From a virus (Duplodnaviria > Caudoviricetes), in the IMG/VR virus record IMGVR_UViG_3300044216_004865, positions 1 to 36,020 of that record: DNA of 36,020 bases; one strand, written 5' to 3'. Within the stretch, counting starts at the first letter, position 1, and each line of letters begins with the position of its first letter. Below the pieces are notes generated by a model that had not been told where the DNA came from, did not search any database, and saw only the letters and a list, made by a program, of their open reading frames with translations. The position numbers and the translations under genes are program-made. Below are positions 1,401-20,208 of the stretch, in pieces.

Positions 1401-1432
1401 CCGGGAGGGGCTTTAAATCCCTTCCGGTTTTT
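1401..1432 (+). terminator. Intrinsic terminator
   Basis: Stem CCGGGAGGG/CCCTTCCGG followed by TTTTT. Confidence 0.7.
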
Positions 1433-1453
1433 AATCAATCAAACACATGACCA

Positions 1454-2121: not shown

Positions 2122-2225
2122 TGATGGAGCAAGACCCAATAACAGCCATAACCTTTTTAGTCGCATTTGCCTGGTTACTCAGCTACATGATCAGGGAAGT
2201 AGTGCAGGAGGCAAAGAAGCCATGA
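2118..2225 (+). CDS. Small membrane protein (35 aa)
   Basis: Read by hand: MMMEQDPITAITFLVAFAWLLSYMIREVVQEAKKP; ATGA overlaps at both ends. Confidence 0.6.
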   Translation: MMMEQDPITAITFLVAFAWLLSYMIREVVQEAKKP

Positions 2226-2599: not shown

Positions 2600-2808
2600 T
2601 GCCAAAACGCTCTACAAAACTCGAAGTCCATATCAATAAGAAGAGATCAACCATTGAAAGCCGTGGGGCTGGGTTCCTCTCATGGGATCGATTAGAGGAA
2701 CGACTACGGCAATCCGGTGAGCTTCAGAGTGAAGATATCCTTGAAAAGGTATTTATCAGCAGTGAAGGAATTGACTACACGACTCAAACAGATGTGAGTA
2801 AGCGATGA
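2599..2808 (+). CDS. Hypothetical protein
   Basis: TAATG and ATGA overlaps with its neighbours. Confidence 0.65.
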   Translation: MPKRSTKLEVHINKKRSTIESRGAGFLSWDRLEERLRQSGELQSEDILEKVFISSEGIDYTTQTDVSKR

Positions 2809-3107
2809 ACAAGTACAAGAAACTCTATATGGAGATATGGAATGAACGCCCTCATGTTTGCGCGGTATGCGGTGAGCCTATCGGCTATCCAGTTCTTCAT
2901 AATTTCTCACACATATATAGCAAAGGATCTCAACCGGCACTAAAGATGGTGAAGGCTAATATTCAAGTTTGGTGCAGTACAGTGAACCGAAAAGAAGGTC
3001 GTGGGTGCCATGAGCTTTACTCAACCCAGCCTCACAAATTTAAAGAACGTGCCGAGAAACACGGATGGGTTAAACCCACGGTTCAGGAAATAATGGAGGC
3101 AGCATGA
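2805..3107 (+). CDS. HNH-like zinc-binding nuclease
   Basis: Pattern CAVC...SH...N.QVWC...CH. Confidence 0.6.
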   Translation: MNKYKKLYMEIWNERPHVCAVCGEPIGYPVLHNFSHIYSKGSQPALKMVKANIQVWCSTVNRKEGRGCHELYSTQPHKFKERAEKHGWVKPTVQEIMEAA

Positions 3108-3247
3108 TTCATTACCGAGGATATAAAATTTACAGTGGGGTTCAGAAGTGGCATGTAGCTAACAAAACAAGGTGCGTTGCAAGTGGATTTAAAACCCTTC
3201 CTGAAGCTAAAACACGTGTAGATGAACTAAAAAAGGAGAAATCATGA
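3104..3247 (+). CDS. Small hypothetical protein (47 aa)
   Basis: Read by hand: MIHYRGYKIYSG...; GGAGG SD and ATGA overlaps. Confidence 0.6.
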   Translation: MIHYRGYKIYSGVQKWHVANKTRCVASGFKTLPEAKTRVDELKKEKS

Positions 3248-3441
3248 AAATAAACGATCTACCCAAACCATACCAGGATCTAATCAGAAAGAGGTCTAAC
3301 CCGATGAAGCAATTAGAGCAACCATTGATCTCTGCCTTTGGCTGGGCTGACACTCCGGAAGGACATGCCTTTTGGATGGCCGTTGATATGGCTAAGACCG
3401 TGGATGAACTTCCTCCAATCCCTAAGCAGGAGGCCGCATGA
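3244..3441 (+). CDS. Hypothetical protein
   Basis: AAGGAG SD; contains FGWADTPEGHAFW, a motif typical of small phage proteins. Confidence 0.7.
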   Translation: MKINDLPKPYQDLIRKRSNPMKQLEQPLISAFGWADTPEGHAFWMAVDMAKTVDELPPIPKQEAA

Positions 3442-3629
3442 GTTGTGTTCATTTCTTAATAGGGGCTGGTATCGTGATAGGGTTTGTCGGTCTATTCCTT
3501 CTATTCACCTTTTTGATACGAGCAAATAAAGCTGATGAACGACATGATCAGATATTCCGTGAACGCATGGATAAGATGAACAATGATATCAGGCGAGAAC
3601 GTGAACGGTATTTAATGGAGAGTAGGTAA
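3438..3629 (+). CDS. Small membrane protein
   Basis: N-terminal hydrophobic helix; GGAGG SD. Confidence 0.7.
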   Translation: MSCVHFLIGAGIVIGFVGLFLLFTFLIRANKADERHDQIFRERMDKMNNDIRRERERYLMESR

Positions 3630-4558
3630 TGGAATGGATTGAAAGTTTTTTTATGTGGACAACCATCATCTCAACGGCTCTATTTATACCGTTTGCGATA
3701 TGGACTATCAGGGATGCTGTTAAGCACTGGGGGGGAAGAATGAGTGGTATCGATACTCCATTAATGAGATATCCTGGGGCCAAATTCAGATTAAGGAAAT
3801 GGTATCACAGCTTTTTCGCCCCTCATAAGGTATATACAGAGCCTTTTTGTGGCACGGCCTCATTGCTTTTTTATAAAAAACCTGCAATTACTGAAGTAAT
3901 TAACGACACGAATTATGATGTAGTAAACCTTTTCCGGGTTTTAAGAGACAGAGATAAATCAAATCAACTCGAGGAGTTGGTTAGGTTAACACCCTATGCA
4001 AGGGAAGAATATGAGCTTTGTTGGGATCCAGCTGATAATGAAATAGAAAAAGCCCGAAGATTTCTAATGAGGGTTTCAATGGGACAGCGTGGAAAGCTTA
4101 CGAAGTCTGGGTTTGATACTCGTGTTAACACTGATAGTTACTCAGGAAGAGTAAACTATTTAAGTGAGCTTCATGAAAGCATCAGCCTATTTACCGATCG
4201 ATTAAAAAAGGTAATAGTTGAATATAAGGACGGTATTGAAATTATTAGGCAATTTGACTCAGATGTAACACTGCAGTTTGTGGATCCTGAATATTTGAAT
4301 GTGAAGAAGGGGTACCCAGATAAATTCACTTTAGAAGATCACTTTAAGCTTTCCAGAGTTTTAAATGAATGCAATGGAATGATAATACTCTGTGGATATC
4401 CATCAGAAGAATATAAAGAATGGTATGAAGATAAGGGGTGGACTATGCACCAATCCAAAGCCTACGCAGATGGAGGGTATAAAAGGACTGAATGCGTGTG
4501 GCTTAATCCGGTATTGAGCCAAAAACAGAAACAACAAACTCTTTTTAGCCATGAGTAA
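3629..4558 (+). CDS. Dam-like (D12 class) DNA adenine methyltransferase; the enzyme probably starts at 3740, fused here to an upstream TM peptide
   Basis: Motifs RYPGAK, EPFCGTAS, EVIND and FVDPEY (variant of DPPY). Confidence 0.9.
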   Translation: MEWIESFFMWTTIISTALFIPFAIWTIRDAVKHWGGRMSGIDTPLMRYPGAKFRLRKWYHSFFAPHKVYTEPFCGTASLLFYKKPAITEVINDTNYDVVNLFRVLRDRDKSNQLEELVRLTPYAREEYELCWDPADNEIEKARRFLMRVSMGQRGKLTKSGFDTRVNTDSYSGRVNYLSELHESISLFTDRLKKVIVEYKDGIEIIRQFDSDVTLQFVDPEYLNVKKGYPDKFTLEDHFKLSRVLNECNGMIILCGYPSEEYKEWYEDKGWTMHQSKAYADGGYKRTECVWLNPVLSQKQKQQTLFSHE

Positions 4559-4817
4559 GCAACCACCTATCATAACGGTTAAAAGCAGGGCTGACAAGCT
4601 TTGTCCTGGTATTACGATCCCAAAGGATCTAACGAATGTACGTCCATTTCTCGAAGGGGTGATCGCCTGTTGCGCTACCGGGGGCAATCGGGATAGAAGG
4701 ACTAAAAACCCCTATAAGTTCGGGGGTTCTCACTACAACGACTGGGAACGTGGGTGGGCATACGCTATGGAGAACAATACAGAACCTAAATTTTTAAAAA
4801 AATGTGAAGCAGCATGA
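4551..4817 (+). CDS. Hypothetical protein
   Basis: Contains NPY...W.RGW; overlaps both neighbours. Confidence 0.65.
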   Translation: MSKQPPIITVKSRADKLCPGITIPKDLTNVRPFLEGVIACCATGGNRDRRTKNPYKFGGSHYNDWERGWAYAMENNTEPKFLKKCEAA

Positions 4818-5410
4818 AACAAGATGATATCGAAAAAGACTTTTTGGAAAGAGTTAAAGACCATGAAGTAGAAATATTAAAAGATGATGGGGTGTATCGT
4901 CATTTACTCTGTAAGAACCCTGACAGTGTATTTGATCACTTTGAGATCATAACCACTCCAGGCTATTTGTTTTATGCCGGTGACATGGGTTCGTTCACCT
5001 TCACGAGGGTGAATGATATGTTCACCTTCTTCAGAAGAGATGAGTTGGTAATAAATACCGGGTATTGGGGTGAAAAGTGTGTAGCTGGTGAGATCAGAGA
5101 ATACAGTTATGAGTCATTCAAGGAGAATATTAAGGACTTTTTTGAAATGACCTTTCCGGAAGAAACCGAAGAATCAAAAGAAGAGTGGTCAAGAATAGAG
5201 GACTACATCTTAAACACAGAAGCCAGAGAGCATGAATACGCTGCAATGCAAGCAGTAAACAATTACCACGATCCTCATGACGTGTTCCAGGATTTTTGGG
5301 AGTCAACCAATACCGTTAAAACCTATCGCTTTATTTGGTGTTGCTATGCTCTTGTATGGGCAATTCAGCAGTACGATGAGATAAAAAAGCAAGAGGAGGT
5401 AGCGGTATGA
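4814..5410 (+). CDS. Conserved phage hypothetical protein
   Basis: Motifs DDGVYRHL, GDMG.F.F.R..DMF.FFR and YW.EK. Confidence 0.8.
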   Translation: MKQDDIEKDFLERVKDHEVEILKDDGVYRHLLCKNPDSVFDHFEIITTPGYLFYAGDMGSFTFTRVNDMFTFFRRDELVINTGYWGEKCVAGEIREYSYESFKENIKDFFEMTFPEETEESKEEWSRIEDYILNTEAREHEYAAMQAVNNYHDPHDVFQDFWESTNTVKTYRFIWCCYALVWAIQQYDEIKKQEEVAV

Positions 5411-6147
5411 AAGAGCGACCAATTTTATTCAGCACAGAAATGGTACAGGCTATCCTTGATGGCCGGAAAACGGAAACTAGAAGGGTGATTACTCCTCAGC
5501 CTGAAAAGTTAGGTGATGTACTCAACTCTGATCCTTATGAAAGGAGTGGGGGTACCTTGATTTGGAAACCGAACAAAGAACAGGATTGGAAATCACCTTA
5601 CGGAAAGGAAGGAGACTTTCTGTACGTCCGCGAGAACTGGAAGCCTTACTCATGGAATCAAGATGGAGATAACTGGACGCTTCAATACCAAGATGGTGAT
5701 ACTGTAAATGTCGGCCACCTTTATCAGGATAAAGACTGGGAAAAAGAACGCGATTTCTATATAAAACTTACAGATCTGCTTTTGGACAAAAAATGTCCAA
5801 TGACTGAAAATGGAGAACTATTTAAGGAACCTCATAAGGTTCTGCCTTGGCGACCAAACATTCACCTACCAAAGCTTGGATCTCGTATCTGGCTCCGTGT
5901 GAAAGAAGTAACCGTTGAGCGGGTGCAGGATATTACCACTGAGGGTATTAAGGCTGAGGGTGTTCTATCAGGTCTTGATGTCCCTCAGAGTGCTTTTCAA
6001 CCTGACACTTTAAAAAGCGCATGGTTTGACCTTTGGAACTCCATCAATAAAGATAGAGGCTACGGATGGGATAAAAATCCTTGGGTTTGGTGTGTTTCTT
6101 TTGAAGTAGTTAGTACTAATGGAAAGCCGGAGGTAGTAAATGGTTGA
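5407..6147 (+). CDS. ASCH/PUA-like domain protein
   Basis: Motifs MKERPILFSTEMVQAILDGRKTETRR, W.PNIH.P and NPWVW. Confidence 0.85.
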   Translation: MKERPILFSTEMVQAILDGRKTETRRVITPQPEKLGDVLNSDPYERSGGTLIWKPNKEQDWKSPYGKEGDFLYVRENWKPYSWNQDGDNWTLQYQDGDTVNVGHLYQDKDWEKERDFYIKLTDLLLDKKCPMTENGELFKEPHKVLPWRPNIHLPKLGSRIWLRVKEVTVERVQDITTEGIKAEGVLSGLDVPQSAFQPDTLKSAWFDLWNSINKDRGYGWDKNPWVWCVSFEVVSTNGKPEVVNG

Positions 6148-6766
6148 ACTAACTTGTGAATATTGTGGCGATTCATTTGAGGTCTATCCATATAGAGCAG
6201 ATTCAGCAAAATTCTGTTCAAAAAGCTGCTCTGCTAAACGAGATAAGCCAAAAAGACATAAGAAGCATAAATACATAGGAATGCAAAAATGCTATTTATG
6301 TCCAACATGCAATCAGTGGAAGCCACCAGAAGATTTTTATTTAGATAAAAGGACTGCTAATGGTCTTAAATCTCAATGTAAATACTGCCATACTCAAGGC
6401 AATTTAAAGACTCGTGATCCTGAAAAAGCTCGTGTTTCCACAAAAAGAAGTGGGCATAAAAGGCGTGCAAAAGAATATGGTGTTTTCGTATATGCCTTTA
6501 CAAAAGAAGATTGGGATAAGCTTGACGAAATGTTCCCAAAGCACTGTCAGAAATGCGGATCAGAGGAAAATTTAACATGGGATCACATTCATGCGCTTGC
6601 TAAAGGAGGTGCTCATCATCCTTCAAATATTCAAAGGCTTTGCGATCCATGTAATAATTCTAAACACACTACCAAATTTGATTACCGGAGTACTGATATA
6701 AAAGGAATGGTTAAATCAATTTGGGGTGACTGCGAAAGATATAACACTGACGGGAGGCCGGGATGA
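6140..6766 (+). CDS. HNH endonuclease with N-terminal zinc fingers
   Basis: CxxC pairs followed by DHIHALAKGG...NIQRLCDPCN. Confidence 0.9.
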   Translation: MVELTCEYCGDSFEVYPYRADSAKFCSKSCSAKRDKPKRHKKHKYIGMQKCYLCPTCNQWKPPEDFYLDKRTANGLKSQCKYCHTQGNLKTRDPEKARVSTKRSGHKRRAKEYGVFVYAFTKEDWDKLDEMFPKHCQKCGSEENLTWDHIHALAKGGAHHPSNIQRLCDPCNNSKHTTKFDYRSTDIKGMVKSIWGDCERYNTDGRPG

Positions 6767-7083
6767 AATACACAGGAAAGCTATACGGCAAAATAGATGG
6801 AAAGTATTTCGACACGGGCAAAACCACAGAGGATTGGGACGCTATGGTTGATGCTCTTGAAATACACACCCCGGATGAGTTCCCGGAGCCTTCTAAAGAT
6901 GATAATACTTTCAGCGTAGATGTTATCTGTGCTGACAAAGAAGGCATGATGAATATCGGTTGCTACAACTACAAAGATGAGGAGTGGGTATTTCACACCG
7001 ATACTATGGTAGATCCTTATGAATTTAATGAAGTATATCCCTTTGTGTGGATGTACAAACCTGATGAATTGGAGATAAAGTAA
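6763..7083 (+). CDS. Hypothetical protein
   Basis: GGAGG SD and ATGA overlap. Confidence 0.7.
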   Translation: MKYTGKLYGKIDGKYFDTGKTTEDWDAMVDALEIHTPDEFPEPSKDDNTFSVDVICADKEGMMNIGCYNYKDEEWVFHTDTMVDPYEFNEVYPFVWMYKPDELEIK

Positions 7084-7394
7084 TGCCCTTTGATAAATTA
7101 ATGATTGATACCGGTTCCAAAAGCATGTCAATATATCACTGGCTTGTAGAACGACTGCCCGCAACTTTTACCTACGAGGTCTTCGAAAAGCTTATGAATC
7201 AACGTCGTGGACTCACAGAGACCAACGAGGAAGAGATCAAACGCACCCTTCGTCAGCTCAGAAAGCTCCGCATGATCGGAGCGCGTGAGATTCAGAACCG
7301 CTACAAGGAAACGACCTACTTCATCCGCGACCTGTACTGCCAACACTATAAGAAGGGGAAGTATGCCCGAACAACTAATGGAGAACAATTATGA
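7083..7394 (+). CDS. Hypothetical protein, possibly a winged-helix DNA-binding protein
   Basis: Basic helix IKRTLRQLRK followed by a probable beta-hairpin. Confidence 0.6.
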   Translation: MPFDKLMIDTGSKSMSIYHWLVERLPATFTYEVFEKLMNQRRGLTETNEEEIKRTLRQLRKLRMIGAREIQNRYKETTYFIRDLYCQHYKKGKYARTTNGEQL

Positions 7395-7819
7395 ATAGAG
7401 AAATAAAATTTAGAGGCAGAGATAAGGATGGTGATTGGTGTGTTGGATGCTATGCTAAAATAGACGACAAGCACATTATTTATGATGATGACTTTAGATC
7501 AATGGTTGAGGTTGAGGCCAAAACAGTGGGGCAGGCAACGCCATGGAAAGACATGAATGGTGCAAGAATGTTCGACGGAGATCAAGTCAGGTGCTATCAC
7601 TTTACGGACACTAATCATGAAGATAGGTATTTGAAGCACTTTATCAGGTGGGACGATGAAAAGGGTTTATTCAAATTTGTTAGCTGCAATTCTAAAGAAT
7701 CAGATCTTAAAAATGGCACTGTTATGGGCTGGGTTTACATGAAGAACTCACAAGAAATTGAAGTGGTCGGCAACATTCACGAAAACCTAAAAATCTTAAA
7801 AGAAGCAGAATTAGAATGA
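7391..7819 (+). CDS. YopX-family protein
   Basis: MNREIKFRG...TVGQ...D.NG...GD...EVVGNIHEN. Confidence 0.9.
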   Translation: MNREIKFRGRDKDGDWCVGCYAKIDDKHIIYDDDFRSMVEVEAKTVGQATPWKDMNGARMFDGDQVRCYHFTDTNHEDRYLKHFIRWDDEKGLFKFVSCNSKESDLKNGTVMGWVYMKNSQEIEVVGNIHENLKILKEAELE

Positions 7820-8667
7820 GCAGAAGAAGTATTGATACCCACTTTTGGAATGACAGTTATACCGGTGAATTACACCCTGATTTTAAGCTTTTATTCCTCT
7901 ACCTGATCACCAGTCCGCTTAGCAATATGTTGGGTTGTTATGAGATTCAATTCAGAAGGATTGCGTTCGATACCGGGCTGTCAAATGAAAGGTTACGGGA
8001 AGGTTTCGAAAGGTTTAGGGAAGATAAAAAAGCGGATTATGTAGATGGATATGTGATTCTATGCAATTTTGTGACCAATCAAAGTTACAACAGCAATATG
8101 TTGAAGAGCGCGGTTGATGAAATTGACGGATTGCCCGATACGGTGCTTTCAAGCCTGTTTTTTAAAAGGTTGATGGAAGGTTTAAGGAAGGTTAATCAAA
8201 GGTTTGATAAAGGGAGGTTAACCCTTCCTAATATAGAAGTAGAATATGAAGTAGAATTAGAAGAAGAAAGTGAAGGTGAATCAGAAACGGGCGCACCTCC
8301 GCGCGATGAAGAACCTTCTCCGATCATGGCAAAAAGAAATAAAGACCAAAAGACGAGTCTTGACCCTGATGCCGATATACCTGAGAAAGAAATATGGGAT
8401 GAGTATCTACTCGCTAAATTGAGGTACTCAAAAGAATTTGTAGAACATCTCTGGGATCATCTGCAAGTGAAGGGATGGAGTGTTGGAAGCCCGCCCGAAC
8501 CGATCAAGGACTGGCGAGCCTATGCCCGTAAGCAGAAGCAATGGGCTTACGAGTACAACCAAAAGCAGAAAAAATTAGAATCAAACACACGAAAAAATGG
8601 AAAAGGAAAGCTCCCTGATGCAAAACGAATCTCAGATGATGTCGATGAACTCTTCCAAAATGGTTGA
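7816..8667 (+). CDS. Phage replication initiator / replisome organiser
   Basis: FW.D...KLLFLYLIT...G.YEI...IAFDTG N-terminal HTH, acidic linker and KDWRA C-terminal motif; contains internal iterons. Confidence 0.85.
   Translation: MSRRSIDTHFWNDSYTGELHPDFKLLFLYLITSPLSNMLGCYEIQFRRIAFDTGLSNERLREGFERFREDKKADYVDGYVILCNFVTNQSYNSNMLKSAVDEIDGLPDTVLSSLFFKRLMEGLRKVNQRFDKGRLTLPNIEVEYEVELEEESEGESETGAPPRDEEPSPIMAKRNKDQKTSLDPDADIPEKEIWDEYLLAKLRYSKEFVEHLWDHLQVKGWSVGSPPEPIKDWRAYARKQKQWAYEYNQKQKKLESNTRKNGKGKLPDAKRISDDVDELFQNG
7989..8280. repeat. Candidate replication origin (AAGGTT iterons)
   Basis: AAGGTT at 7989, 8000, 8010 and at 8166, 8177, 8188, 8199 (11 bp period); inverted AACCCTT at 8220; then a purine-rich tract. 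Confidence 0.65.
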
Positions 8668-9133
8668 TCTTGAATTACCGGTAGAAACGGACGAAGGCAT
8701 AAAAACAGTCACTTTACGGGTTGACAACTCCGTACCGGCGCATAAAAACAAGGAATTCTTTACAGGCTTTTGCTACATGATGGCTACGGCCAACAAAAAA
8801 GAAAGCCTGGATAAGATGGAAATGTGGATACTTCGACAGGCGTGCAAGAACCACAACATCTATCCGAATGAATTATATCATGCCTACTGGGAAGCGATTG
8901 GGGATGAGTTTGTGAGTAAGGAAGGCATTGAGTTTAAGAACCTGTTTAAGTACGTGAAGAAACACCGGGCTAATACCTACAAAGTTCCTCCGGAGCCAGA
9001 AACCATGCAGGAATACCAGGAACGTATTGTATCGGGAGGTGCTGAGAATATTCGAAAGTTGAAAGAAAGAGGCCCGAAGTCACTTGGTAGTCTGATGCCT
9101 GAATATCGAAAGAATAACGACTCACGGTTTTAA
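8660..9133 (+). CDS. Hypothetical replication-associated protein
   Basis: Follows the initiator; the ATG at 8660 gives the usual short overlap, unlike the track start at 8597. Confidence 0.65.
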   Translation: MVDLELPVETDEGIKTVTLRVDNSVPAHKNKEFFTGFCYMMATANKKESLDKMEMWILRQACKNHNIYPNELYHAYWEAIGDEFVSKEGIEFKNLFKYVKKHRANTYKVPPEPETMQEYQERIVSGGAENIRKLKERGPKSLGSLMPEYRKNNDSRF

Positions 9134-9134
9134 A

Positions 9135-9323
9135 ATGAATATTGAACTTGAATATCAGGCCGAAACACTGGAAAAGGCTAAAAAGTATTTAGATAACCGG
9201 ATATTAGATGTTCGGTATGAGAACAAAGTTATCGCTTTAAATGAGTGGTACAAAACCATTCAAGCAACAGCTTCCAGTTTATATGATCTGGATCCACGCC
9301 AAGAAAGCAAAGTTAAGGCTTAA
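9135..9323 (+). CDS. Hypothetical protein
   Basis: 62 aa ORF abutting the upstream stop. Confidence 0.6.
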   Translation: MNIELEYQAETLEKAKKYLDNRILDVRYENKVIALNEWYKTIQATASSLYDLDPRQESKVKA

Positions 9324-9333
9324 TAAAAACCCA

Positions 9334-9366
9334 ACCACTGCTCTTCGGGGTGGTGGTATTAATTTT
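9334..9366 (+). terminator. cUUCGg hairpin, possibly a weak terminator or processing site
   Basis: ACCACTGCTC-TTCG-GGGTGGTGGT followed by ATTAATTTT. Confidence 0.5.
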
Positions 9367-9738
9367 ATGATGATGAAAACCTTTATAAGTGAACTTGGAG
9401 TAACGATTACTGGAAGGACAAGAGCGGGTGAAGAGTTTGTAGAAAACTTTGCCAAAGATGAAGCGATATGTAGGGAGAGAGAACGAAAATGGATATCCTT
9501 TCTTAGAGATATAGGCATAAAAGGAGCGCTAAGAAATGATGGCTGGGTGAAAAGAGAACAGAAGTATTTTAGATGGGCTTCCTATGCTTTTTTCGATGAT
9601 GGTGTTAAGGAAGGTGATGGAGATTGGTATTGTCCTAACTGCAAGGCTTACATAGTAGATGAAAGGGTGACTTATGAAGAGACGTGTGATATGTGTGGCG
9701 CACCCTGCCAATGGCACGGTTCACCTTACAATGATTAG
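9367..9738 (+). CDS. Hypothetical protein with a C-terminal zinc ribbon (possibly chimeric)
   Basis: ATG run after the hairpin; CPNC...CDMC near the C-terminus. Confidence 0.6.
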   Translation: MMMKTFISELGVTITGRTRAGEEFVENFAKDEAICRERERKWISFLRDIGIKGALRNDGWVKREQKYFRWASYAFFDDGVKEGDGDWYCPNCKAYIVDERVTYEETCDMCGAPCQWHGSPYND

Positions 9739-9741
9739 TAC

Positions 9742-9819
9742 CACTAACGGGCGGGGATTAACCGGAGCTTATGATGTACTACATGGCAATTAAGGTTCCG
9801 GTTGAATCCATTGTTGCGC
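9742..9819 (-). other. attC site (78 bp) of the gene-less cassette 9748-9889
   Basis: Minus strand: GCGCAAC-AATGG-ATTCAACCGGAACCTTA...TAAGCTCCGGTTAAT-CCCCGCCC-GTTAGTG; the L'' box carries an extra C. Confidence 0.8.
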
Positions 9820-9883
9820 GGTCGCTTGCGACCAACAGGGAAGTAATCCCCGCCCGTTGCGCCGAAGGGAGCGAAGCGATCCG

Positions 9884-10007
9884 GCGCAACGGTGAAAGCT
9901 TAAACGGCGCTGAGATTAGGAATATTAATTAAAATTTAAACTAAAACATAAATCACGATAGTGATTGCCGGACGCGAACAGCGTCCGCTTTGAAGCTATT
10001 GTTATAC
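9884..10007 (-). other. attC site (124 bp) of cassette 9890-10228
   Basis: Minus strand: GTATAAC-AATAG-CTTCAAAGCGGACGCTG...CAGCGCCGTTTAAG-CTTTCACC-GTTGCGC. Confidence 0.85.
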
Positions 10008-10021
10008 AACCGGAGTTGATT

Positions 10022-10228
10022 ATGAGTAAGAAGTTATTTGAGTTTACAGCACATGTTAGATGCGCGGCTGTGGTTGCCGCTGATACCGAAGAAGAAGCCC
10101 GAAAAGCAATTGAGACTTGGGAAAGGGCTTGGTTTGAAACTGGCGACGTTGTTGGTGTTGTGGATGTCGATTTGTTTGACGTTAGGGAATCTGAGGATGC
10201 AGAGGAGGAAGCGCATGAGGTTGTATAA
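10022..10228 (+). CDS. Cassette gene: small acidic hypothetical protein (68 aa)
   Basis: GGAG at 10012 and ATG at 10022; V.A.TEEEA motif; the TAA stop lies inside the core GTATAAC. Confidence 0.75.
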   Translation: MSKKLFEFTAHVRCAAVVAADTEEEARKAIETWERAWFETGDVVGVVDVDLFDVRESEDAEEEAHEVV

Positions 10229-10345
10229 CGGTGGAGGCTTAACCGCGCGCTGAAATTATGAACTAACCAAAAGATAGAATTATGAAAGACAGTCAGAAAA
10301 GTACCAAGGACGCGACAGCGTCCGATGTTGAAGCCATTGTTATGC
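10223..10345 (-). other. attC site (123 bp) of cassette 10229-10545
   Basis: Minus strand: GCATAAC-AATGG-CTTCAACATCGGACGCTG...CAGCGCGCGGTTAAG-CCTCCACC-GTTATAC. Confidence 0.85.
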
Positions 10346-10545
10346 CCCCGGCGGATAGGCAACTGGAGTATATGCTTGAAACATACCGCAATGTTGCTAA
10401 AAGGATGACCAAGGCAAAAAGAAAATGCAGAGGTGTTAGATTAACATTTGAGGAGATTCACATTTTAGATGTTTTTAGGGACATCACAACTTTTGCCGAT
10501 GCTACTGATGAAGATATACAGGACATCGTAAAAGAGGGGGCATAA
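10282..10545 (+). CDS. Cassette gene, hypothetical; the start codon lies inside its own attC
   Basis: ATG at 10282 in the AT-rich attC loop (alternatives at 10342 and 10372); the TAA stop lies inside GCATAAC. Confidence 0.7.
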   Translation: MKDSQKSTKDATASDVEAIVMPPADRQLEYMLETYRNVAKRMTKAKRKCRGVRLTFEEIHILDVFRDITTFADATDEDIQDIVKEGA

Positions 10546-10571
10546 CATATACTTATACCGATCGGGATAAG
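10540..10571 (-). other. Candidate attI site
   Basis: Minus strand GTATAAG-TATAT-G|TTATGC (L box, 5 bp spacer, R box); no attC second arm; lies directly upstream of intI and faces away from it. Confidence 0.65.
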
Positions 10572-10602
10572 AACATGAAATATTAATTAAATGGAGAGTA
10601 GT

Positions 10603-11553
10603 ATGAATAAACGAAAATCAGTTGAGGCCGTTAGAAAGGAGATCAGGAGAAGGAATTACGCCTCTCGAACAGAAAAAAGCTATATCCACTGGATAACAGA
10701 TTTCTTTGGGTATCATTCTGAGAACTCTATGGAAGATATCGGGAAGGATGAAGTGGTGGACTATCTGAATTACCTGGCAGAGGAACGGGCGGTATCAGGT
10801 TCAACGCATAATCAGGCCTTGTGTGCGGTTAAGTTCTTGTTTGATACACTGGATAAGGACATGAGTGGGTTGAATGGATTGAAGCAGGCGAAGGAGTCTA
10901 ATCACCTTCCAACGGTATTATCTCCAAAAGAAGTGCGGGGTATTCTGAGCCGGATGAGCGGTATGCCGAAGTTGATTGCGTTTTTGCAGTTTGGTTCTGG
11001 GATGCGCATATCGGAGGTGGTAAGATTGCGGATCAATGATGTAGATTTTGATAATGTACAGATCTATGTGCGGAATGCGAAGGGATTGAAGGATCGTACT
11101 ACTTTGCTTCCTGATATGCTTAAAAAGGCGCTGACTAATCAGGTGATCAGAGCTACTAAGCGGAATCAAAAAGATAAGACAAGGGGGTTTGGTGAGGCAC
11201 CAATGCCGAAAGCACTGGCTAATAAATATCCGTCCGCATCCAAAGAAACGGGGTGGCAGTATCTGTTTCCGTCTTCTCAGATCAGTAAAGGTAAACGATA
11301 CCACATTTCACCCAGCACCGTCCAGAAAGACCTAAAGCGTGCGGTGAGACTGTCGGGCATCAATAAGAAGGTAGGTACCCACACACTCCGGCATTCGTTT
11401 GCTACACAGATGTTGAAGTCTGGGGTTGATATCCGGACGGTACAGGAACTGCTTGGCCATAAAAATATCAGGACTACCGAGCGGTACACACATGTAATCG
11501 GAAAGGAACAAACCGAAAGCCCTATCGCCCAATTAATGCATGAGGCAACCTGA
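10603..11553 (+). CDS. intI: Integron integrase (tyrosine recombinase)
   Basis: N-domain YASRTEKSYIHWI and STHNQALCA; GMRISE, KGLKDR; integron-specific insertion MPKALANKYPSASKETGWQYLFPS; HTLRHSFAT, LLGH and TERYTH; GGAGAG SD before ATG 10603 (alternative start 10591). Confidence 0.92.
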   Translation: MNKRKSVEAVRKEIRRRNYASRTEKSYIHWITDFFGYHSENSMEDIGKDEVVDYLNYLAEERAVSGSTHNQALCAVKFLFDTLDKDMSGLNGLKQAKESNHLPTVLSPKEVRGILSRMSGMPKLIAFLQFGSGMRISEVVRLRINDVDFDNVQIYVRNAKGLKDRTTLLPDMLKKALTNQVIRATKRNQKDKTRGFGEAPMPKALANKYPSASKETGWQYLFPSSQISKGKRYHISPSTVQKDLKRAVRLSGINKKVGTHTLRHSFATQMLKSGVDIRTVQELLGHKNIRTTERYTHVIGKEQTESPIAQLMHEAT

Positions 11554-11605
11554 GACTATTACAACCAAAAGAGCAATTTTTTTACAACCAATCAAACACA
11601 GACCA

Positions 11606-13240
11606 ATGAGTGACCGACCAATTATACTTTTTATAGACCTTTTCTGCGGAGCGGGAGGCGTAACAACCGGCGCGGTAAAAGCACGAATGGGGAAATATCA
11701 GCCCGTGAAAGTGATAGCCTGCGTGAACCACGATCCTTTAGCCATTGAAAGCCATGAATACAATCATCCGGACGCGCTTCATTTCTCTGAGGATATACGA
11801 AAACTTGATACAGGTCCGATTTCCAGGTTAGTGGAGTTCTACCGGGAGAAATACCCCAACGCTGTGGTTATACTCTGGGCATCGATGGAGTGTACCAATT
11901 ACAGCAAAGCCAAGGGCGGAATGCCAAGGGATGCAGACAGCCGGTCACTACCTGATGAAATGGATCGGTACGTTGAAGCTATTCAGCCCGATTACTTTCA
12001 ATGGGAGAATGTAGAGGAGTTTATGAGCTGGGGCCCGCTGGATGATAAGGGTAAACCGGTATCACGAAAGAACGGAAGAGAATGGCTGGCTTGGCAGAAA
12101 CGAATAAAGGCTATGGGGTATCGCCACGAGTGGAGGATGCTTAATTCAGCGGACTACGGAGCTCATACCAAGCGAAATCGTTTGTTTGGGGTATTTGCAA
12201 AGGGTGACCTTCCTATCGTATGGCCGGAACCTACTCATGGAGAGAATCCGGATGTTGATAATATGTTCGGGAACTTAAAGCCATGGAACCCAGTCCGGGA
12301 ATGCCTTGATTTTGAAGATGAAGGGCAGAGCATATTTAAGCGCGATAAACCCTATGTAGAAAACACGCATAAACGATTTTTAGCCGGATTGAAAAAGTAC
12401 TACCTGAACGGAGATGGCTTTTTGTGCAAATACTACGGCAATGGTGATAATGTGGACTCACTCGATGAACCTTGCGCGGTGATACCAACTACCGACCGCT
12501 TCAATTTTGTGCAGACGGCGTTTCTTGATAAAGGATTTTCAGGAGTCCATAATCATCAGTCGATAGAAGAACCCGCTGGCACACTTATGGCTAAAGATCA
12601 CTACTCCGTGGTGAAGGTGAATAAGGCGGTGTGGCTGGATAAGCAGTACAAGGGTGAATTGAATCACGAAAGTGTGAACGGGGCAGCAGGATCTATACTT
12701 GGAAACCCGAAACATCAACTCATGCAGGCGTTTATCACCGATACCAGTTTTAATAATGTGGGCAGCTCAATTGAAGATCCGTTTCCAACGATACTCGCAA
12801 ATCGAAAGTGGCACTACCTAAGCTCGGTTCATAAAGTAAAAGGCGGATGGATTCTAAACCCGCAGTATAGTTCAAAAGGCGGAAGTATCGACGAACCATG
12901 TTTCACGCTGATTGCCCGGATGGACAAAGCCCCGCCACAGCTCGTACAATATGAAATCGGAGTTCCTCACTTGAAGATTACCGAGAAAGACGATCCGACC
13001 ATGAAGGAAATAAAGCGGTTCTGCATGGAGCACGGGATCGTGGACATTAAGTCGCGGATGCTCAGGGTTCACGAGTTGAAGAAAATTCAGGGCTTCCCGG
13101 ATGATTACTACTTAGCGGGGAATCAGACTGATCAGAAGAAATTCATCGGCAATTCAGTGGTGCCACAGGTAGTGAAGGCATGGATGGAAGCAATCGCGTA
13201 CAAACTACAAGATCAGATCAACGAACGGGTAGCTGCATAA
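11606..13240 (+). CDS. C5 cytosine DNA methyltransferase with a repeated variable region
   Basis: Motifs DLFCGAGG, SMECTNYSKA, WENVEEF, RNRLF, QGFP and IGNSV. Confidence 0.92.
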   Translation: MSDRPIILFIDLFCGAGGVTTGAVKARMGKYQPVKVIACVNHDPLAIESHEYNHPDALHFSEDIRKLDTGPISRLVEFYREKYPNAVVILWASMECTNYSKAKGGMPRDADSRSLPDEMDRYVEAIQPDYFQWENVEEFMSWGPLDDKGKPVSRKNGREWLAWQKRIKAMGYRHEWRMLNSADYGAHTKRNRLFGVFAKGDLPIVWPEPTHGENPDVDNMFGNLKPWNPVRECLDFEDEGQSIFKRDKPYVENTHKRFLAGLKKYYLNGDGFLCKYYGNGDNVDSLDEPCAVIPTTDRFNFVQTAFLDKGFSGVHNHQSIEEPAGTLMAKDHYSVVKVNKAVWLDKQYKGELNHESVNGAAGSILGNPKHQLMQAFITDTSFNNVGSSIEDPFPTILANRKWHYLSSVHKVKGGWILNPQYSSKGGSIDEPCFTLIARMDKAPPQLVQYEIGVPHLKITEKDDPTMKEIKRFCMEHGIVDIKSRMLRVHELKKIQGFPDDYYLAGNQTDQKKFIGNSVVPQVVKAWMEAIAYKLQDQINERVAA

Positions 13241-13289
13241 CCGCCCTTACTAGACAATTCCATCGAGAAAACACCCGATAAAACCCGCC

Positions 13290-13321
13290 TTTGTATTCCA
13301 TATAGGAAATAATTAGCTTTA
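13290..13321 (+). promoter_or_regulatory. Bacteroidota-type promoter with a TTCC-N5-GGAA palindrome in its spacer
   Basis: TTTG (13290), 20 nt spacer, TAGCTTTA (13314); TTCCATATAGGAAAT at 13296-13310. Confidence 0.55.
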
Positions 13322-13352
13322 TATATGCCTTATTAATTCAAAATAGGTAAAT

Positions 13353-13967
13353 ATGAAGATACCGATCCCACCCAGTGAGCTTACAGAGAAGCACTACAGC
13401 CAGTTTATACCCGAACCGGATATGCCGGACTTCATGATGGAAACATTTGTCGATGGATCAGGAGAGCTTTTTAATCCGGATCACTCCCACTTATTGGACG
13501 CTACATTCGGTGTGCTATGGACGAACGTGGAGAATATTACGAAGGGCAGAAGGATACTGGCCACAGTTCAGGAGGCAGAACCCAATGGCAGGCCATGGAG
13601 TAAAGGATTGAAAGAAGTACAGCTTCAAGAGTGGTTTACAGACATTCCGACTTTCCTCATCATCATTGACGGGGTAAAGTGGATGGAGTTCTCTAACCTT
13701 CAACGGTGTGCCATTCTCGAGCATGAACTATACCACTGCGCTCAGAAGAAAGACAAGTACGGTATTCCAAAGTTCCATTTTGAAACAGGTCTTCCGCTTT
13801 ACACAACAGTTGGTCATGATGTTGAAGAGTTCATCGGTGTGGTGAAGCGATACGGTGCTCACAGTGAGGGATTGAAGGAGATGGAGAAGGCACTAAACAG
13901 TAAGCCTGAGGTATCCATCGATAGCATAGAAGGCGTGTGCGGTAACTGCATGAAGAAGGTGGCGTGA
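13353..13967 (+). CDS. Phage putative metallopeptidase
   Basis: HELYH motif and HDVEEF.GVV.RYG; located before terS. Confidence 0.85.
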   Translation: MKIPIPPSELTEKHYSQFIPEPDMPDFMMETFVDGSGELFNPDHSHLLDATFGVLWTNVENITKGRRILATVQEAEPNGRPWSKGLKEVQLQEWFTDIPTFLIIIDGVKWMEFSNLQRCAILEHELYHCAQKKDKYGIPKFHFETGLPLYTTVGHDVEEFIGVVKRYGAHSEGLKEMEKALNSKPEVSIDSIEGVCGNCMKKVA

Positions 13968-13997
13968 ATTTAAACGAGTTTAAACAAATCATGAAAA

Positions 13998-14444
13998 ATG
14001 GCCACTCTATCAAATAAACATAAAACATTTATAGTCATACGCTTGGCGTGCTATGATAGTCCGACAGAAGTGGTTGAAGCGTTTAAAGAAGAGTTTGGGG
14101 TAGAGACAGATCGCGTGCAGGTTTCCTACTATAATCCATTATCTGCATTTGGAAAAGAAAAGCTGGCTCAAAAATGGAAGGATTTATTTAACGAAACCCG
14201 CGAACGCTTCAAGGAAGAAATTCAGGGTATCCCTATTGCAAATCAGGCTTATCGACTAAAAAAGCTTCAGAAAAACATGGAGCAGCTTGAAAGAATGAAA
14301 AATTACAAGGGTGCGAACGACACTATTGAACAAGCTGCAAAAGAAGTTGGCGGCGCCTATACAAACAAACTCGAGCATACTGGTAAAGATGGTGGCCCAA
14401 TTCAGGTGAGTGAGGTTGAAATCGTAAAGAATAAGAATGGTTGA
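13998..14444 (+). CDS. terS: Terminase small subunit (DUF2280-like)
   Basis: MATL...K.FIV.RLACYDSP, IPIANQAYRL, EQAAKEVGG and EHTGKDGGPI. Confidence 0.85.
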   Translation: MATLSNKHKTFIVIRLACYDSPTEVVEAFKEEFGVETDRVQVSYYNPLSAFGKEKLAQKWKDLFNETRERFKEEIQGIPIANQAYRLKKLQKNMEQLERMKNYKGANDTIEQAAKEVGGAYTNKLEHTGKDGGPIQVSEVEIVKNKNG

Positions 14445-15747
14445 TACGCTTCAAATATCAGATATCGCCTATGTGAATGAGGATGGAAAGCTCAGGGTAG
14501 AGTTTCACCCCGGTCAGACTAAGGCTTGGGAAAGTGATGCGCGATTCGTTTGCGTCCTTGCAGGGACTCAGGGAGGGAAGACAAGTTTCGGTCCTTATTG
14601 GTTATGGAGGGAAATTAAACTAAAGGGACCTGGTGATTATTTAGTGGTAACCCCCACCTTCACGCTACTTGAAAAGAAAGCACTACCTGAATTTTTAAAG
14701 TTATTTGAAGAGCGACTAAACCTTGGTTCTTATGTAGGTGGGTCAAAAAAAACGTTTACCATAAGCGACCAGGGGGAAAAGAGGTTGTTTGGGGAAGTTC
14801 AGGAGACTAAAACAAAGATATTCTTTGGACACGCCCAAGATCCGGAATCACTGGAATCTGCGACTGCAAAAGCAGCATGGTTAGATGAGGTTGGGCAGAA
14901 GAAGTTCAAATTGAGCTCATGGCAGGCTATACAGAGAAGGCTCTCTATCTTTCAAGGGAGGGCGCTGTTTACCACCACACCGTATAATCTTGGCTGGTTG
15001 AAATTAGAGATTTGGGATAAAAGAAATACTGATCCAGCTATTGAAGTTATAAGATTTGAAAGCAAGGACAATCCCATATTCCCGATTGAGGAGTGGTACC
15101 GAATGAAAGAATCACTACCTGCATGGAAGTTTAACCTGTTCTATCGTGCAATCTTTACAAAGCCAGCTGGACTTATTTATGATTGTTTTGATGAGGACCA
15201 ATACAAGATACCGAGATTTCCTATACCGAATGACTGGCCCAGATACTGGGGGCTTGACTTTGGTGGTGTTAATACGGTTTGTATTAAGTATGCAAGGGAG
15301 CCTGAGACTGAAAACTATTATGCCTATCAGGAATATAAAGCAGGCGGAAAAACAGCAAAAGAGCATTCCCAATACCTAAAGAAAAATGATAAGATGCCTC
15401 ACGAAATACGGGGTGGCGCTCCAAGTGAGACTCAATGGAGGAATGAATTTCAATCAGGTGGGCTGCCAATTAAGAGACCCAAAGTAAAAGAAGTAGAAGT
15501 TGGCATTGATCGGGTTTATGGTGCTCACAAGCGGGGAATGATATATGTGTTTGATGATCTTGAAATGTATCTGGAAGAGAAGTTAACATATTCCCGAGAG
15601 CTCGATGATAATGATGAACCAACAGAACAGATTGAAGACAAGAACAAATTTCACTTTATGGATGCCGAGCGATACATAATCGGCAGTATAGTAAGCGACA
15701 AAAAAACACCACGCAAAAACCGGTCCTACTCCTACGGATCAACCTAA
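14437..15747 (+). CDS. terL: Terminase large subunit
   Basis: Walker A AGTQGGKT, Walker B AWLDE, TTTP, and nuclease motifs GLDFG and HFMDAERY. Confidence 0.92.
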   Translation: MVDTLQISDIAYVNEDGKLRVEFHPGQTKAWESDARFVCVLAGTQGGKTSFGPYWLWREIKLKGPGDYLVVTPTFTLLEKKALPEFLKLFEERLNLGSYVGGSKKTFTISDQGEKRLFGEVQETKTKIFFGHAQDPESLESATAKAAWLDEVGQKKFKLSSWQAIQRRLSIFQGRALFTTTPYNLGWLKLEIWDKRNTDPAIEVIRFESKDNPIFPIEEWYRMKESLPAWKFNLFYRAIFTKPAGLIYDCFDEDQYKIPRFPIPNDWPRYWGLDFGGVNTVCIKYAREPETENYYAYQEYKAGGKTAKEHSQYLKKNDKMPHEIRGGAPSETQWRNEFQSGGLPIKRPKVKEVEVGIDRVYGAHKRGMIYVFDDLEMYLEEKLTYSRELDDNDEPTEQIEDKNKFHFMDAERYIIGSIVSDKKTPRKNRSYSYGST

Positions 15748-15759
15748 ACCACGAATATT

Positions 15760-17430
15760 ATGGCAACTGCATTTTCAGAATACACGAAAACCGATGCTGA
15801 AAAACGAATCAATGATTCTTTTAAAGATTATAAAGATGATTTCGAGTCGAATAAGAAATTCTATAGCGGAGACCACTATCAGGATGGTGATGGATGGGCG
15901 GGGGCACTTCCATCTACGTCTAAGGATAAGTCCGCGACACTGAAGAAGATTCAAGCCCTATTTTCTTCACAGAACGTAATCAAAGAGGTTGTTTGCAGGC
16001 TTCGTGATGCGGTTATCTCAAAAGACCCGACCTGGAATGTTCACCTTACCCGCATACTCAAAGAAGAAGAGGGTCCAAAAGATGAGGAGCAGAAGGTCAT
16101 CGACGAGACGGAACAGGCGCTCACGGAATGGTGGAAGGATTATGATATCCATGGGGTGCTCAAGGAGTATGTGAAGATCGTGTCGATCGGAAAGAAGGCC
16201 GTACTTAGAATCTATGTTCCAGCCACATTTACAGATGGTGGGAATGTAAAGTCAGGTGATTTTACTGAGCAACTCGACAAGATCCGTGTTGAGGTGGTTG
16301 ACGGGAACAAAGCCACGGTTTATGAGGACAAGGACGAGGCGCAAAGTGCAGGGCTTCTATCGTACAAAGATGAAGATGATAATGAGATCATTGAAATATG
16401 TTATCTGAATGAGAAGGGAGAAACGATTGTACGTAGCATCATAGACGGTAAACCCGACGACAGTGCTCCGGTTAATCTTCAGGGCAACCTTCTCATGCAC
16501 GAGTCAGGCGCTGAGATGCTGATCACTAAGCAGGTACGCCAGCTCAATAAGATGGTGAATAAGGCTCACACCATGATGAACGGGAACCTTGATAATGGAT
16601 TCCTCGAGCGAATATTTCTGAACGCCCAGCCACCAGGGAAATGGGAGAAGGATTCGGAAACTGGAGAGGATGTTTTTAAACCCGATCCTGTAAATGTAGG
16701 GCCAAATACAATCAACTTCCTTGCCGGGCTTGAAACCGAAGATGAGGATGGTAAAAAACGTATAGCCACTCCTTCGGTAAACTTCAGGGAGCCTGTACCT
16801 AATGAAACCTTTGTGGAGGCCAAGGAGAGCGCATACCGTTCTATACTTGAAGAAGTGCATCAGAAGCACGCTCTTATATCCGGAGATGCAAGCCCAAGCG
16901 GTGAAAGTCGTATTCAGGCACTCGTTGATTTCATCAAGAGCGCTCAGGAATATAAGTCAGATTTGGACACTGCCGGCCGATGGTTACTTAAGACGGTCAT
17001 GTACCTTGCTTGGGACTTTGCGGGGCAGGCAAGTAGATCAGAGCAGTACAGCGTTGATTTTGATGCACGGATTGACCCCGGACACCTACCGGCCGAGATG
17101 AGGAATCAGATCATTACCGAGTATGAGAAAGGAATGCTATCTCGTGAGACAGCCATGGCTATGCTGGGTGTGGATGATATCGACGCGGAGATCAGTCGCA
17201 TTGATACCGCCACTGCTCATGTGAAGGAGGTCTTTGAAGTGCTTGAAGTAGCCAACATTAAACCTAAGACGCTGATGGTTGAGCTGATCAACAAGGTTAT
17301 TGCCGACAAAGAGATATTGACTGATCTCAAAGAAGGGGATAAGGCGAATGCAATAAAGGCCGAGATCGAGGCTATACTTGACCGCTCTGTTCAGGAAGAT
17401 GATTTAACCGGAGCCTTGGGGTTATCATGA
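15760..17430 (+). CDS. Portal protein
   Basis: 556 aa, directly after terL; FY.GDH, SGESR and G.LSRETAM motifs. Confidence 0.85.
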   Translation: MATAFSEYTKTDAEKRINDSFKDYKDDFESNKKFYSGDHYQDGDGWAGALPSTSKDKSATLKKIQALFSSQNVIKEVVCRLRDAVISKDPTWNVHLTRILKEEEGPKDEEQKVIDETEQALTEWWKDYDIHGVLKEYVKIVSIGKKAVLRIYVPATFTDGGNVKSGDFTEQLDKIRVEVVDGNKATVYEDKDEAQSAGLLSYKDEDDNEIIEICYLNEKGETIVRSIIDGKPDDSAPVNLQGNLLMHESGAEMLITKQVRQLNKMVNKAHTMMNGNLDNGFLERIFLNAQPPGKWEKDSETGEDVFKPDPVNVGPNTINFLAGLETEDEDGKKRIATPSVNFREPVPNETFVEAKESAYRSILEEVHQKHALISGDASPSGESRIQALVDFIKSAQEYKSDLDTAGRWLLKTVMYLAWDFAGQASRSEQYSVDFDARIDPGHLPAEMRNQIITEYEKGMLSRETAMAMLGVDDIDAEISRIDTATAHVKEVFEVLEVANIKPKTLMVELINKVIADKEILTDLKEGDKANAIKAEIEAILDRSVQEDDLTGALGLS

Positions 17431-17621
17431 GCAGCATTAGCAACTCCATAGAACGCACACTAGCAAAAACACCTTTAAAAACAAGAATCAAGGTGATGCT
17501 TGAGATGGATGATTATGAAAACTGGGAGAACGGAACATACCAAGGGGACCAGGAAGAAAATGCCAACATGATTGTTGGTGTAGTTCGTGAATGGCAAAAA
17601 GACGGAGCGGATCTTGAGTAA
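17427..17621 (+). CDS. Hypothetical protein
   Basis: ATGA overlap with the portal gene. Confidence 0.6.
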   Translation: MSSISNSIERTLAKTPLKTRIKVMLEMDDYENWENGTYQGDQEENANMIVGVVREWQKDGADLE

Positions 17622-17784
17622 AATCCCTTGTGCATATTGCGGAAAAGAGTACGACCGTAGCGAATACCCGAACCGTAATTACGCTGAGTGCATGGAGTGT
17701 GCTAAATCAAACCGCAAATCATGGTGGAGTAAGTTGAAAGACTATCTGCGTAAAATAAGACTTCCAAGGGTGGTGTTGAGATGA
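17614..17784 (+). CDS. Small zinc-finger protein
   Basis: GGAG plus TTG start; CAYC...CMEC. Confidence 0.55.
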   Translation: MSKIPCAYCGKEYDRSEYPNRNYAECMECAKSNRKSWWSKLKDYLRKIRLPRVVLR

Positions 17785-17930
17785 ATTACTTTATCCTTCC
17801 ATATGAACATGTTTTTGTGATTAATGGGATTATCTGTACAAGTAATTCGTTGATTGACTATGAAGAGTTTGAAGTACGTTTGACTAACGGTGAGCTGCAA
17901 GAAATGATATTTAATAGCATTGAATCATGA
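17781..17930 (+). CDS. Small hypothetical protein (49 aa)
   Basis: Read by hand: MNYFILPYEH...; ATGA overlaps at both ends. Confidence 0.55.
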   Translation: MNYFILPYEHVFVINGIICTSNSLIDYEEFEVRLTNGELQEMIFNSIES

Positions 17931-18388
17931 AAAAGGTATATCAAACCATAGTTGACTCTGAAAAAGGTAATTGCGCACAGGCTGCTATTGCATCTCTTTT
18001 TGATAAGGATATTGAAGGTGTGCCTAACTTCATAGAATACCAGGAGCGATATACTGAAAAGTTGATGGACTTCTTTGAAGAGCATGGCTATCCAAATGCG
18101 ACCAATATAGGTATCAAAAGGTTTGAAAAAGAGATCATCCAGAAAGCCATTGATTTGGATGGTGGTGTGAATGGATTATTCTATGCCTCGGTAAACAGTC
18201 AGACGTTTGAGAGCGTTACTCATGCGGTAATTGTTGATAAAGGACTGAGTGTTGTCCATGACCCGAACCCGAACTGCAGGGCGCTTGGGTTAGGCGCGTT
18301 TCATATTAAGTCTATGATATTTCCCAACGGGATTGTCATAGGCAAACATGGCGGTGTGATGAAAATGGAAGAGGTGCTGAATGGATAA
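17927..18388 (+). CDS. Hypothetical protein, possibly papain-like (Cys/His/Asp)
   Basis: GNC..AAIASL, HAVIV and HDPNP. Confidence 0.65.
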   Translation: MKKVYQTIVDSEKGNCAQAAIASLFDKDIEGVPNFIEYQERYTEKLMDFFEEHGYPNATNIGIKRFEKEIIQKAIDLDGGVNGLFYASVNSQTFESVTHAVIVDKGLSVVHDPNPNCRALGLGAFHIKSMIFPNGIVIGKHGGVMKMEEVLNG

Positions 18389-18638
18389 AGCCCTGGGATA
18401 CATAGAATGTGAGATACTATGCTTTGAAGATGATCAGGCTGTGCATTTTGAAGAGATGGGAATTAAATCACCTACCGAATACAGGTGGGGGATCATCATG
18501 GTTGATAAGGTAGAAACCATTGTACCTCGGGATGATGGTAATGCCACTGTTAGCCTTATAAGTGGTGATTCTTTAGAGGTAAACGAGCCTTACAGCGACT
18601 TTTTAAAACGATTCAAAAAAGTTTTAGATGCCCTATAA
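18381..18638 (+). CDS. Hypothetical protein
   Basis: GAGG SD; overlaps both neighbours. Confidence 0.7.
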   Translation: MDKALGYIECEILCFEDDQAVHFEEMGIKSPTEYRWGIIMVDKVETIVPRDDGNATVSLISGDSLEVNEPYSDFLKRFKKVLDAL

Positions 18639-19725: not shown

Positions 19726-19736
19726 TTATTAGCCAA

Positions 19737-20195: not shown

Positions 20196-20208
20196 AATAG
20201 TAAAATTT

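Follow-up and report, generated by a model that had tools for sequence, protein, structure and literature searches.

A probable phage-resident integron whose cassette genes are antisense to their attC sites

Integrons are regarded as bacterial devices that depend on cassette genes facing away from the integrase gene, intI; a complete integron in a phage is generally taken for an uncommon remnant of a host. Here we analyze a virus record in which an integron integrase (IntI), an attI site and three attC sites lie among phage genes, with the cassette genes reversed so that they read toward intI. The stretch analyzed, hereafter the window, is the whole of record IMGVR_UViG_3300044216_004865 (1..36020, a tailed-phage contig). 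Judged from its sequence, the locus is probably a phage-resident integron: its attC and attI sites are as in bacteria, its genes are reversed, and the phage's own IntI likely moves cassettes into the early transcript.

Two orientation types of integrons have been named, regular and inverted integrase (PMC13323075; this and all other publications are cited for the accessible part of their text). Among 10,705 phage genomes, Qi et al. (2023) reported three complete integrons, namely a Vibrio chromosomal fragment, class 1 mosaics and a Shewanella-type integron in a cryptic prophage, and phage attC sites recombine with IntI1 (PMC9892861). As at the present locus, these are integron parts inside phage genomes. 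The Shewanella phage record is a canonical integron: it has an annotated LexA site, and each of the 14 genes annotated between its repressor and intI points away from intI. The reversed-gene architecture is not described in the main text of PMC9892861, whose Supplementary File S1 may bear on novelty, nor is it found in the accessible parts of PMC11551772, PMC10500605 and 10.1101/2022.09.11.507474. A 2026 review of the topic, in its accessible part, cites Qi et al. alone (PMC13492144). More generally, we found no description of reversed-cassette phage integrons in a literature search whose coverage largely left out subscription papers. Isolated cassettes in reverse orientation have been described, such as symE in Xanthomonas (10.1101/2025.06.18.660453). 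It is also known from SALINs and attG sites that IntI can insert cassettes outside canonical platforms (10.1101/2022.09.11.507474). Such insertion could seed phage arrays; the window differs in having a dedicated, conserved intI and attI.

The sedentary chromosomal integrons of Balneolaceae (L115, L262-L281) are of the regular type, and their IntIs belong to the same family and clade as that of the window. They also share with it a similar attI end, attC sites on the strand opposite intI and about 11 nt of complementarity between cassette ends. Unlike them, the window has genes antisense to attC, located in a phage operon, an attC spacer of 8 instead of 9 nt, a 6-aa loop deletion in IntI and no TGTAAG...AC element. 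The arrangement that defines the regular type, with genes in sense with attC and pointing away from intI under the promoter Pc, is found neither in the window nor in two related phages, L001 and L271. In the inverted-integrase type, intI and the cassette genes are co-directional, as they are in the window. However, in that type attC follows its gene on the same strand, whereas in the window it precedes the gene on the opposite strand, with intI on plus and attC on minus. The window element is an integron by every feature testable here, and it is of neither the regular nor the inverted type. Its parts are the following (L001 is a contig within genome G071, which is from the same family as L115, Balneola sp.):

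9742..9819, minus strand: attC of the distal unit
9748..9889: distal unit, 142 bp, gene-less
9844..9864, minus strand: exact inverted copy, 21 nt, of the distal unit's own circle junction
9884..10007, minus strand: attC of cassette 2, 93% identical to an L001 attC bearing other cargo
9890..10228: cassette 2, 339 bp, attC on minus and gene on plus
10022..10228, plus strand: cassette 2 open reading frame (ORF), 68 aa, acidic
10223..10345, minus strand: attC of cassette 1, 92% identical to an L001 attC bearing other cargo
10229..10545: cassette 1, 317 bp, attC on minus and gene on plus
10372..10545, plus strand: cassette 1 ORF, 57 aa, or 87 aa from the in-frame ATG at 10282 inside attC
10543..10574, minus strand: attI, with the crossover G|TT on the minus strand (AA|C at 10545/10546)
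10591..11553, plus strand: intI, integron integrase, 320 aa from the first ATG (gene callers start it at 10603, giving 316 aa)

The encoded protein scores 337 bits against TIGR02249 (integron integrase; cut-off 265) and stays far below the Xer cut-offs (XerC, 143 vs 335; XerD, 139 vs 330). Its best PDB match, both by sequence and by fold, is VchIntIA (2A3V). In a FastTree phylogeny of 156 proteins and 329 columns, rooted on two Xer-like proteins, it nests among Balneolaceae IntIs with a support of 0.957, in a long-branched clade (support 1.0) together with L002, L271 and P0003-P0017, where P denotes proteins without genomic context. Odd-numbered genome loci, short or broken frames and duplicates were omitted from the tree, as was L001 itself through deduplication. 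An earlier note on this DNA, made from the sequence alone, had named grouping with XerC/D or phage integrases as grounds for rejecting an integron; profile score, structural match and tree all place the protein with IntI. The note had also credited it with a full catalytic set, and R139, K164, H264, R267, H290 and Y299 (the reference set being R-K-H-R-H-Y, PMC3053210) are indeed invariant in 16 of 16 close homologs. The IntI-specific insertion described there is present as well, with W222, K212 and Y213 intact and the residues equivalent to VchIntIA K209, Y210, W219 and H241 kept (H240 is replaced by Tyr), but it is 6 residues short in the beta-4/5 loop around VchIntIA P232, a deviation that the note had missed. 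An AlphaFold model (pLDDT 76, pTM 0.54) confirms the fold alone. Between the window and L001, whose IntIs are 88% identical, the proportions of nonsynonymous (pN) and synonymous (pS) differences over 305 codons are 0.074 and 0.749; the derived ratio of 0.017 is rough because synonymous sites are near saturation. By this comparison, the window IntI is under strong purifying selection. GenBank phage records (50,697) contain nine matches to it at E <= 1e-40, all below 60% identity.

The attI site adjoins intI with its crossover facing away from the gene, as the earlier note had described, and is conserved in 4 of 4 related phages (the window, L001, L002 and L271), where it ends like the host attI. 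An attC detector based on the pattern R''-5 nt-L'' with an extra C, followed by L'-spacer-R', found just the three listed sites in the 36 kb and, at the same threshold, one match in 66 Markov-shuffled windows (1/6 and 0/60). In each of the three, L'' is preceded by 5 nt of spacer and R' by 8 nt, and the extra C is present. Coordinates and detector thus bear out the three minus-strand sites with an extra L'' base that had been proposed, and the proposed unit sizes are reproduced by the crossover AAC triplets at 9746, 9888, 10227 and 10544, which delimit units of 142, 339 and 317 bp. A relaxed scan of the window (up to 260 nt) revealed no additional attC, and the leftmost flank has no upstream partner. 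The outer stem is formed in the circle-form minimum-energy fold of 11 of 11 phage attC sites.

Each cassette end is complementary to its own end over 7, 11 and 11 nt, compared with 3, 3 and 5 nt to the neighboring end. The complementarity to the unit's own R'' box that the earlier note had pointed out is therefore real, but it is an ordinary feature of cassettes (median 11 nt in host cassettes, n=120) and, being symmetric, it cannot alone assign an attC to one neighbor; we rejected it as evidence of orientation. The same symmetry would suit ordinary cassettes (gene, then plus-strand attC) in an inverted-integrase integron whose strand we had misread, and real phage arrays of that type exist (L028, L064, L292). 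Nevertheless, we consider a misread strand very improbable. The extra base and the 5- and 8-nt spacers are placed as in minus-strand attC sites, and the final AAC (10544) adjoins attI-like sequence resembling host attI, not a hairpin. Six seawater metagenome runs contain the window stretch, whole or in part, and two of them may be where it came from. Among seawater contigs, the 142-bp unit is followed at its end by two other attC types, starting to diverge at 9891 and 9898. The attC families have in common the 8 nt that follow AAC, and the branch records have 58 and 45 nt on the window side and >250 nt beyond it; co-occurring relatives may be their source. L030, from an unrelated phage lineage, is without a 451-bp unit of L029, exactly between two AACs, and a unit common to L029 and L066 starts with the attC that lies on the left of its gene. 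The attI position, the contig branch points and the L029/L030/L066 units together imply that a unit consists of an attC followed by a reversed gene.

Both window cassette genes (2/2) read toward intI, as had been stated in the earlier note, and both ORFs stop at the TAA of the crossover. For cassette 2, the direction is backed by plus-strand homologs of the ORF (5 full-length at 60-68% identity among 6 matches) and by a codon model, which scores 18.5 on plus vs -12.3 on minus; the ORF has no Pfam or PHROG match. Two of the homologs, P0123 and P0124, end at the same residue, which suggests that they are cassette-borne too. A 145-aa minus-strand ORF at 9925-10362, also with no Pfam or PHROG match, was dismissed as a shadow frame. 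In several long attC loops, ATG-started frames run through the site into or up to the cargo (at 10282 in the window, at 274, 1061 and 3176 in L001, and at 10791 in L271), and they might carry ribosomes across the hairpin.

We then compared cassette orientation in the host family and in viral contigs. The host control comprised 20 loci picked for long contigs plus L115 and L187, and 12 of the 22 yielded cassette intervals. According to a per-locus codon model, the 125 Balneolaceae chromosomal intervals comprise 94 sense, 0 antisense and 31 unclear ones. The viral survey covered the best 80 of 122 IntI-bearing contigs plus the window and included several near-duplicates (L029-L031). Here, 25 of 81 loci gave 36 antisense, 5 sense and 16 unclear intervals; by locus, 19 are mainly antisense, 1 is mixed, 2 are sense and 3 unclear, both sense-only loci being inverted-integrase arrays. 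We checked 18 of these viral loci, using 46 of 72 long ORFs: 8 have virion or packaging matches, and the rest have replication, integrase, transposase or methyltransferase matches. The codon model replaced a longest-ORF rule, which was not fine enough for viral loci rich in GC (18 antisense, 16 sense, 23 unclear). The host result is the same by both, the longest-ORF counts (sense/antisense/unclear) being 101/1/5 in the 20 loci, 13/0/0 in L115 and 5/0/0 in L187. In other genomes the counts were 36/1/18 (15 of 79 loci), and in metagenome contigs they were 11/1/9 (10 of 79). The other antisense phage integrons fall in separate parts of the IntI tree. This tentatively suggests multiple origins of phage integrons, the deep nodes being weak. 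Inverted-integrase arrays, with attC downstream on the intI strand and genes in sense, were seen at L292:6611-10071 (GenBank KX853513, which annotates its integrase as xerD), L028 and L064; they are a second way of keeping all genes co-directional.

The survey bears on whether the phage simply acquired a piece of a host chromosomal integron, with cassettes flipped by top-strand recombination. The window IntI does nest among Balneolaceae IntIs, and published complete phage integrons derive from hosts or from class 1 integrons (PMC9892861). On the other hand, none of the 125 host intervals is antisense, the phage attC family is unlike the host's (the spacer is 8 nt in 10 of 11 phage sites and 9 nt in 142 of 143 host sites), cargo in the related phages matches phage families, and the phage IntI clade is long-branched and distinct. 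IntI cuts the folded bottom strand of attC at AAC, which yields the 'correct' orientation under Pc, and use of the top strand flips the entire cassette, attC along with the gene (PMC5027507). In contrast, the window has flipped genes and unflipped attC sites. We therefore give such an origin only a very slim chance.

The region before intI also differs from that of the host. The ATG-to-crossover distance is 45-57 nt in the window and L001 vs roughly 175-260 nt in the host. A TGTAAG...AC element, which may act as a promoter or operator, precedes intI in 19 of 22 non-prophage host loci (by regular expression); L271 and L002 have it too, and it is absent from the window and from L001. Since the window does not have the element, intI and the array probably share one transcript. 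A conserved TGTAAG-N-GGTCTTAC-like element was seen upstream of intI in L081, L115, L187 and L262-L281 (Balneolaceae).

Related phages carry the same apparatus with different cargo. In L001, L002 and L271, attI lies just upstream of packaging genes. The L001 array has six complete units and one that is cut, with no cargo in common with the window, and its cassette ORFs, all on the intI strand, include RtcB (PF01139), DUF551 and phrog_13210. The RtcB RNA ligase is encoded in a 1301-bp reversed cassette (L001:1825-3125) and is a candidate counter-defence gene, its function being inferred. L002, whose IntI is 76% identical to that of the window, starts at the attI crossover and runs on into portal and capsid genes. 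L271 is a complete prophage on G071 C2 (L271, L287, L288) with host genes on both flanks, and its IntI falls in the same clade as the window IntI. It encodes its own phage integrase, RecT, an initiator, portal, capsid and tape measure; since a separate phage integrase is present, IntI is not its integration enzyme. The L271 array comprises two units with intact attC and one with a remnant attC, holding three plus-strand cassette genes. One cassette, 94% identical between the two, occurs in both L001 and L271, with different cargo after it. Portal families differ between the window, L001 and L002/L271, which implies that the integron holds its place across mosaic genomes. The comparison of array content across relatives that had been proposed as a check thus came out in favor of variation: content differs in L001 and L271, and the seawater contigs branch at the crossover. 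Exact attC-arm searches of viral contigs returned just the L001 contig and one chance match, L260. At L271:10500-10750, the leftmost crossover coincides with the stop codon of an ordinary phage gene, next to a short attC remnant, and the C-terminus of this gene resembles the window ORF 9135-9323. Loose contig ends of 20-25 nt place one foreign cassette end before both attC families; they fall below our 31-nt bridging rule and are a hint only. In the lineage of L029, L030, L031 and L066, reversed cassettes of 847 and 916 bp are shared across different contexts.

Several observations weigh against an active phage-run integron. IntI is encoded in 120 of 216 host-family genomes (E <= 1e-60; apart from that of L001, these enzymes are 43-54% identical to the window's), and the window IntI lacks the 6 residues around VchIntIA P232, which contacts an extrahelical base (PMC3053210). 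By our own measure, array-form folding of the window attC sites is poor (0.063, 0.0005 and 0.039 vs a host median of 0.5). No joint excising a window cassette was found in six contig sets, in which rare variants cannot appear. The cassette 1 ORF has no homolog except itself and no Pfam or PHROG match. Finally, a sigma-70 promoter scan found 3 candidates vs 5.3 expected, none above chance.

The first two of these observations would suit real and mobile cassettes that are served in trans by a host chromosomal IntI, the phage enzyme being weak, specialised or a passenger; indeed, an enzyme without the P232 loop implies that host IntI could act in trans. Among 31 tree rows from host-family loci, the loop is full in 27, three residues short in 1 and not parsed in 3. 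However, the deletion runs through a whole subclade of full-length or near full-length homologs (L001, L002, P0003-P0009). Moreover, the phage intI is under strong purifying selection with its catalytic set and W222/K212/Y213 intact, and the phage has its own conserved attI and an attC family unlike the host's. On this evidence, we regard dependence on a host enzyme as unlikely.

Alternatively, the integron might formerly have been active and the array of this phage be frozen now. Consistent with this, wherever runs X1-X4 cover the window array they show it unaltered and reveal no excision joint, and array-form folding is poor, the distal attC being predicted to be blocked. A 1201-nt 'skip' joint in run X3 (side 26 nt) was rejected, as it belongs to a relative's contig. 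Yet rare variants are dropped from contigs, the intI gene is intact as well as conserved, the attC sites fold well in circle form (0.71, 0.30 and 0.18), and co-occurring relatives differ at the crossover. A frozen array thus seems decidedly improbable, and we favor an integron that is run by the phage itself.

Under a phage-run integron, the substrate of IntI would be the folded plus strand of a circular cassette, which is the bottom strand of attC and, in this case, the coding strand as well; IntI would recombine it into attI at 10545/10546. Insertion at this point would make new cassettes adjoin intI, with older ones shifted upstream. The cassette genes would be read, together with intI, from the upstream phage early transcript instead of from Pc, and IntI would be most active while the phage carries out early transcription and replicates. 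With an origin in the upstream replication/initiator gene, the recombinogenic strand would be the lagging-strand template, an orientation that favors excision (PMC5371416). The distal 142-bp unit is predicted to adopt a non-recombinogenic fold, and it may serve as an anchor for the end of the array. The 21-nt sequence copied at 9844-9864 is contiguous solely in the circular form of this unit, and the copy is predicted to pair with the R'/L' arm in the linear array (-39.7 kcal/mol, z -5.5), which lowers the distal attC folding measure from 0.063 to 1e-7. Besides this copy, a strong hairpin (z -3.5) lies within window 9844-9892; relatives in runs X3 and X4 share it from 9854 and differ upstream.

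If a conserved lineage of phages does possess an IntI, an attI, an attC family and reversed cassettes of its own, phages would have a site-specific route to mosaicism of accessory genes in their early regions, with cargo that includes counter-defence candidates such as the L001 RtcB ligase. Such a lineage would also bear on cassette origin: if gene orientation relative to attC tracks the strand of the surrounding transcript, models of cassette formation could be tested on phage and host pools within one family, and the Balneolaceae prophage version (G071:C2) offers an experimental handle. More speculatively, and in our view with the odds against it, tailed phages may run an integron economy of their own. 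A pool of phage-gene cassettes would be exchanged between phages and separated from the host pool by orientation alone, IntI would have been recruited from hosts seemingly more than once and rewired to the early transcript, and the 142-bp unit would be a footprint of cassette or attC making. If so, a host cassette, often anti-phage, would be silent in a phage attI, and a phage cassette would be silent under a host Pc. Host integrons have been described as storing anti-phage genes (10.1101/2024.07.02.601686).

The integron is located between replication genes and a methyltransferase/terminase block, and the plus strand carries the main genes over bases 1-19725. The flanking features are:

7816..8667, plus strand: DnaD-like replication protein (PHROG match), upstream of the array
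11540..13240, plus strand: C-5 DNA methyltransferase, directly 3' of intI
14437..15747, plus strand: terminase large subunit (PHROG match), where the packaging module begins

Other PHROG matches in the window are to a portal (weak), a major head protein and an endolysin, and an Rfam scan of the window gave 0 matches. About 400 bases upstream of the array, at 9334-9357, lies a plus-strand terminator-like hairpin of a kind whose count is not above chance. Within the head module, a minus-strand block at 19737-24505 encodes a DUF4942 methyltransferase-like gene, a PAPS-reductase-like gene and small ORFs, and a portion of this block is 74-86% identical to L001 12748-14482.

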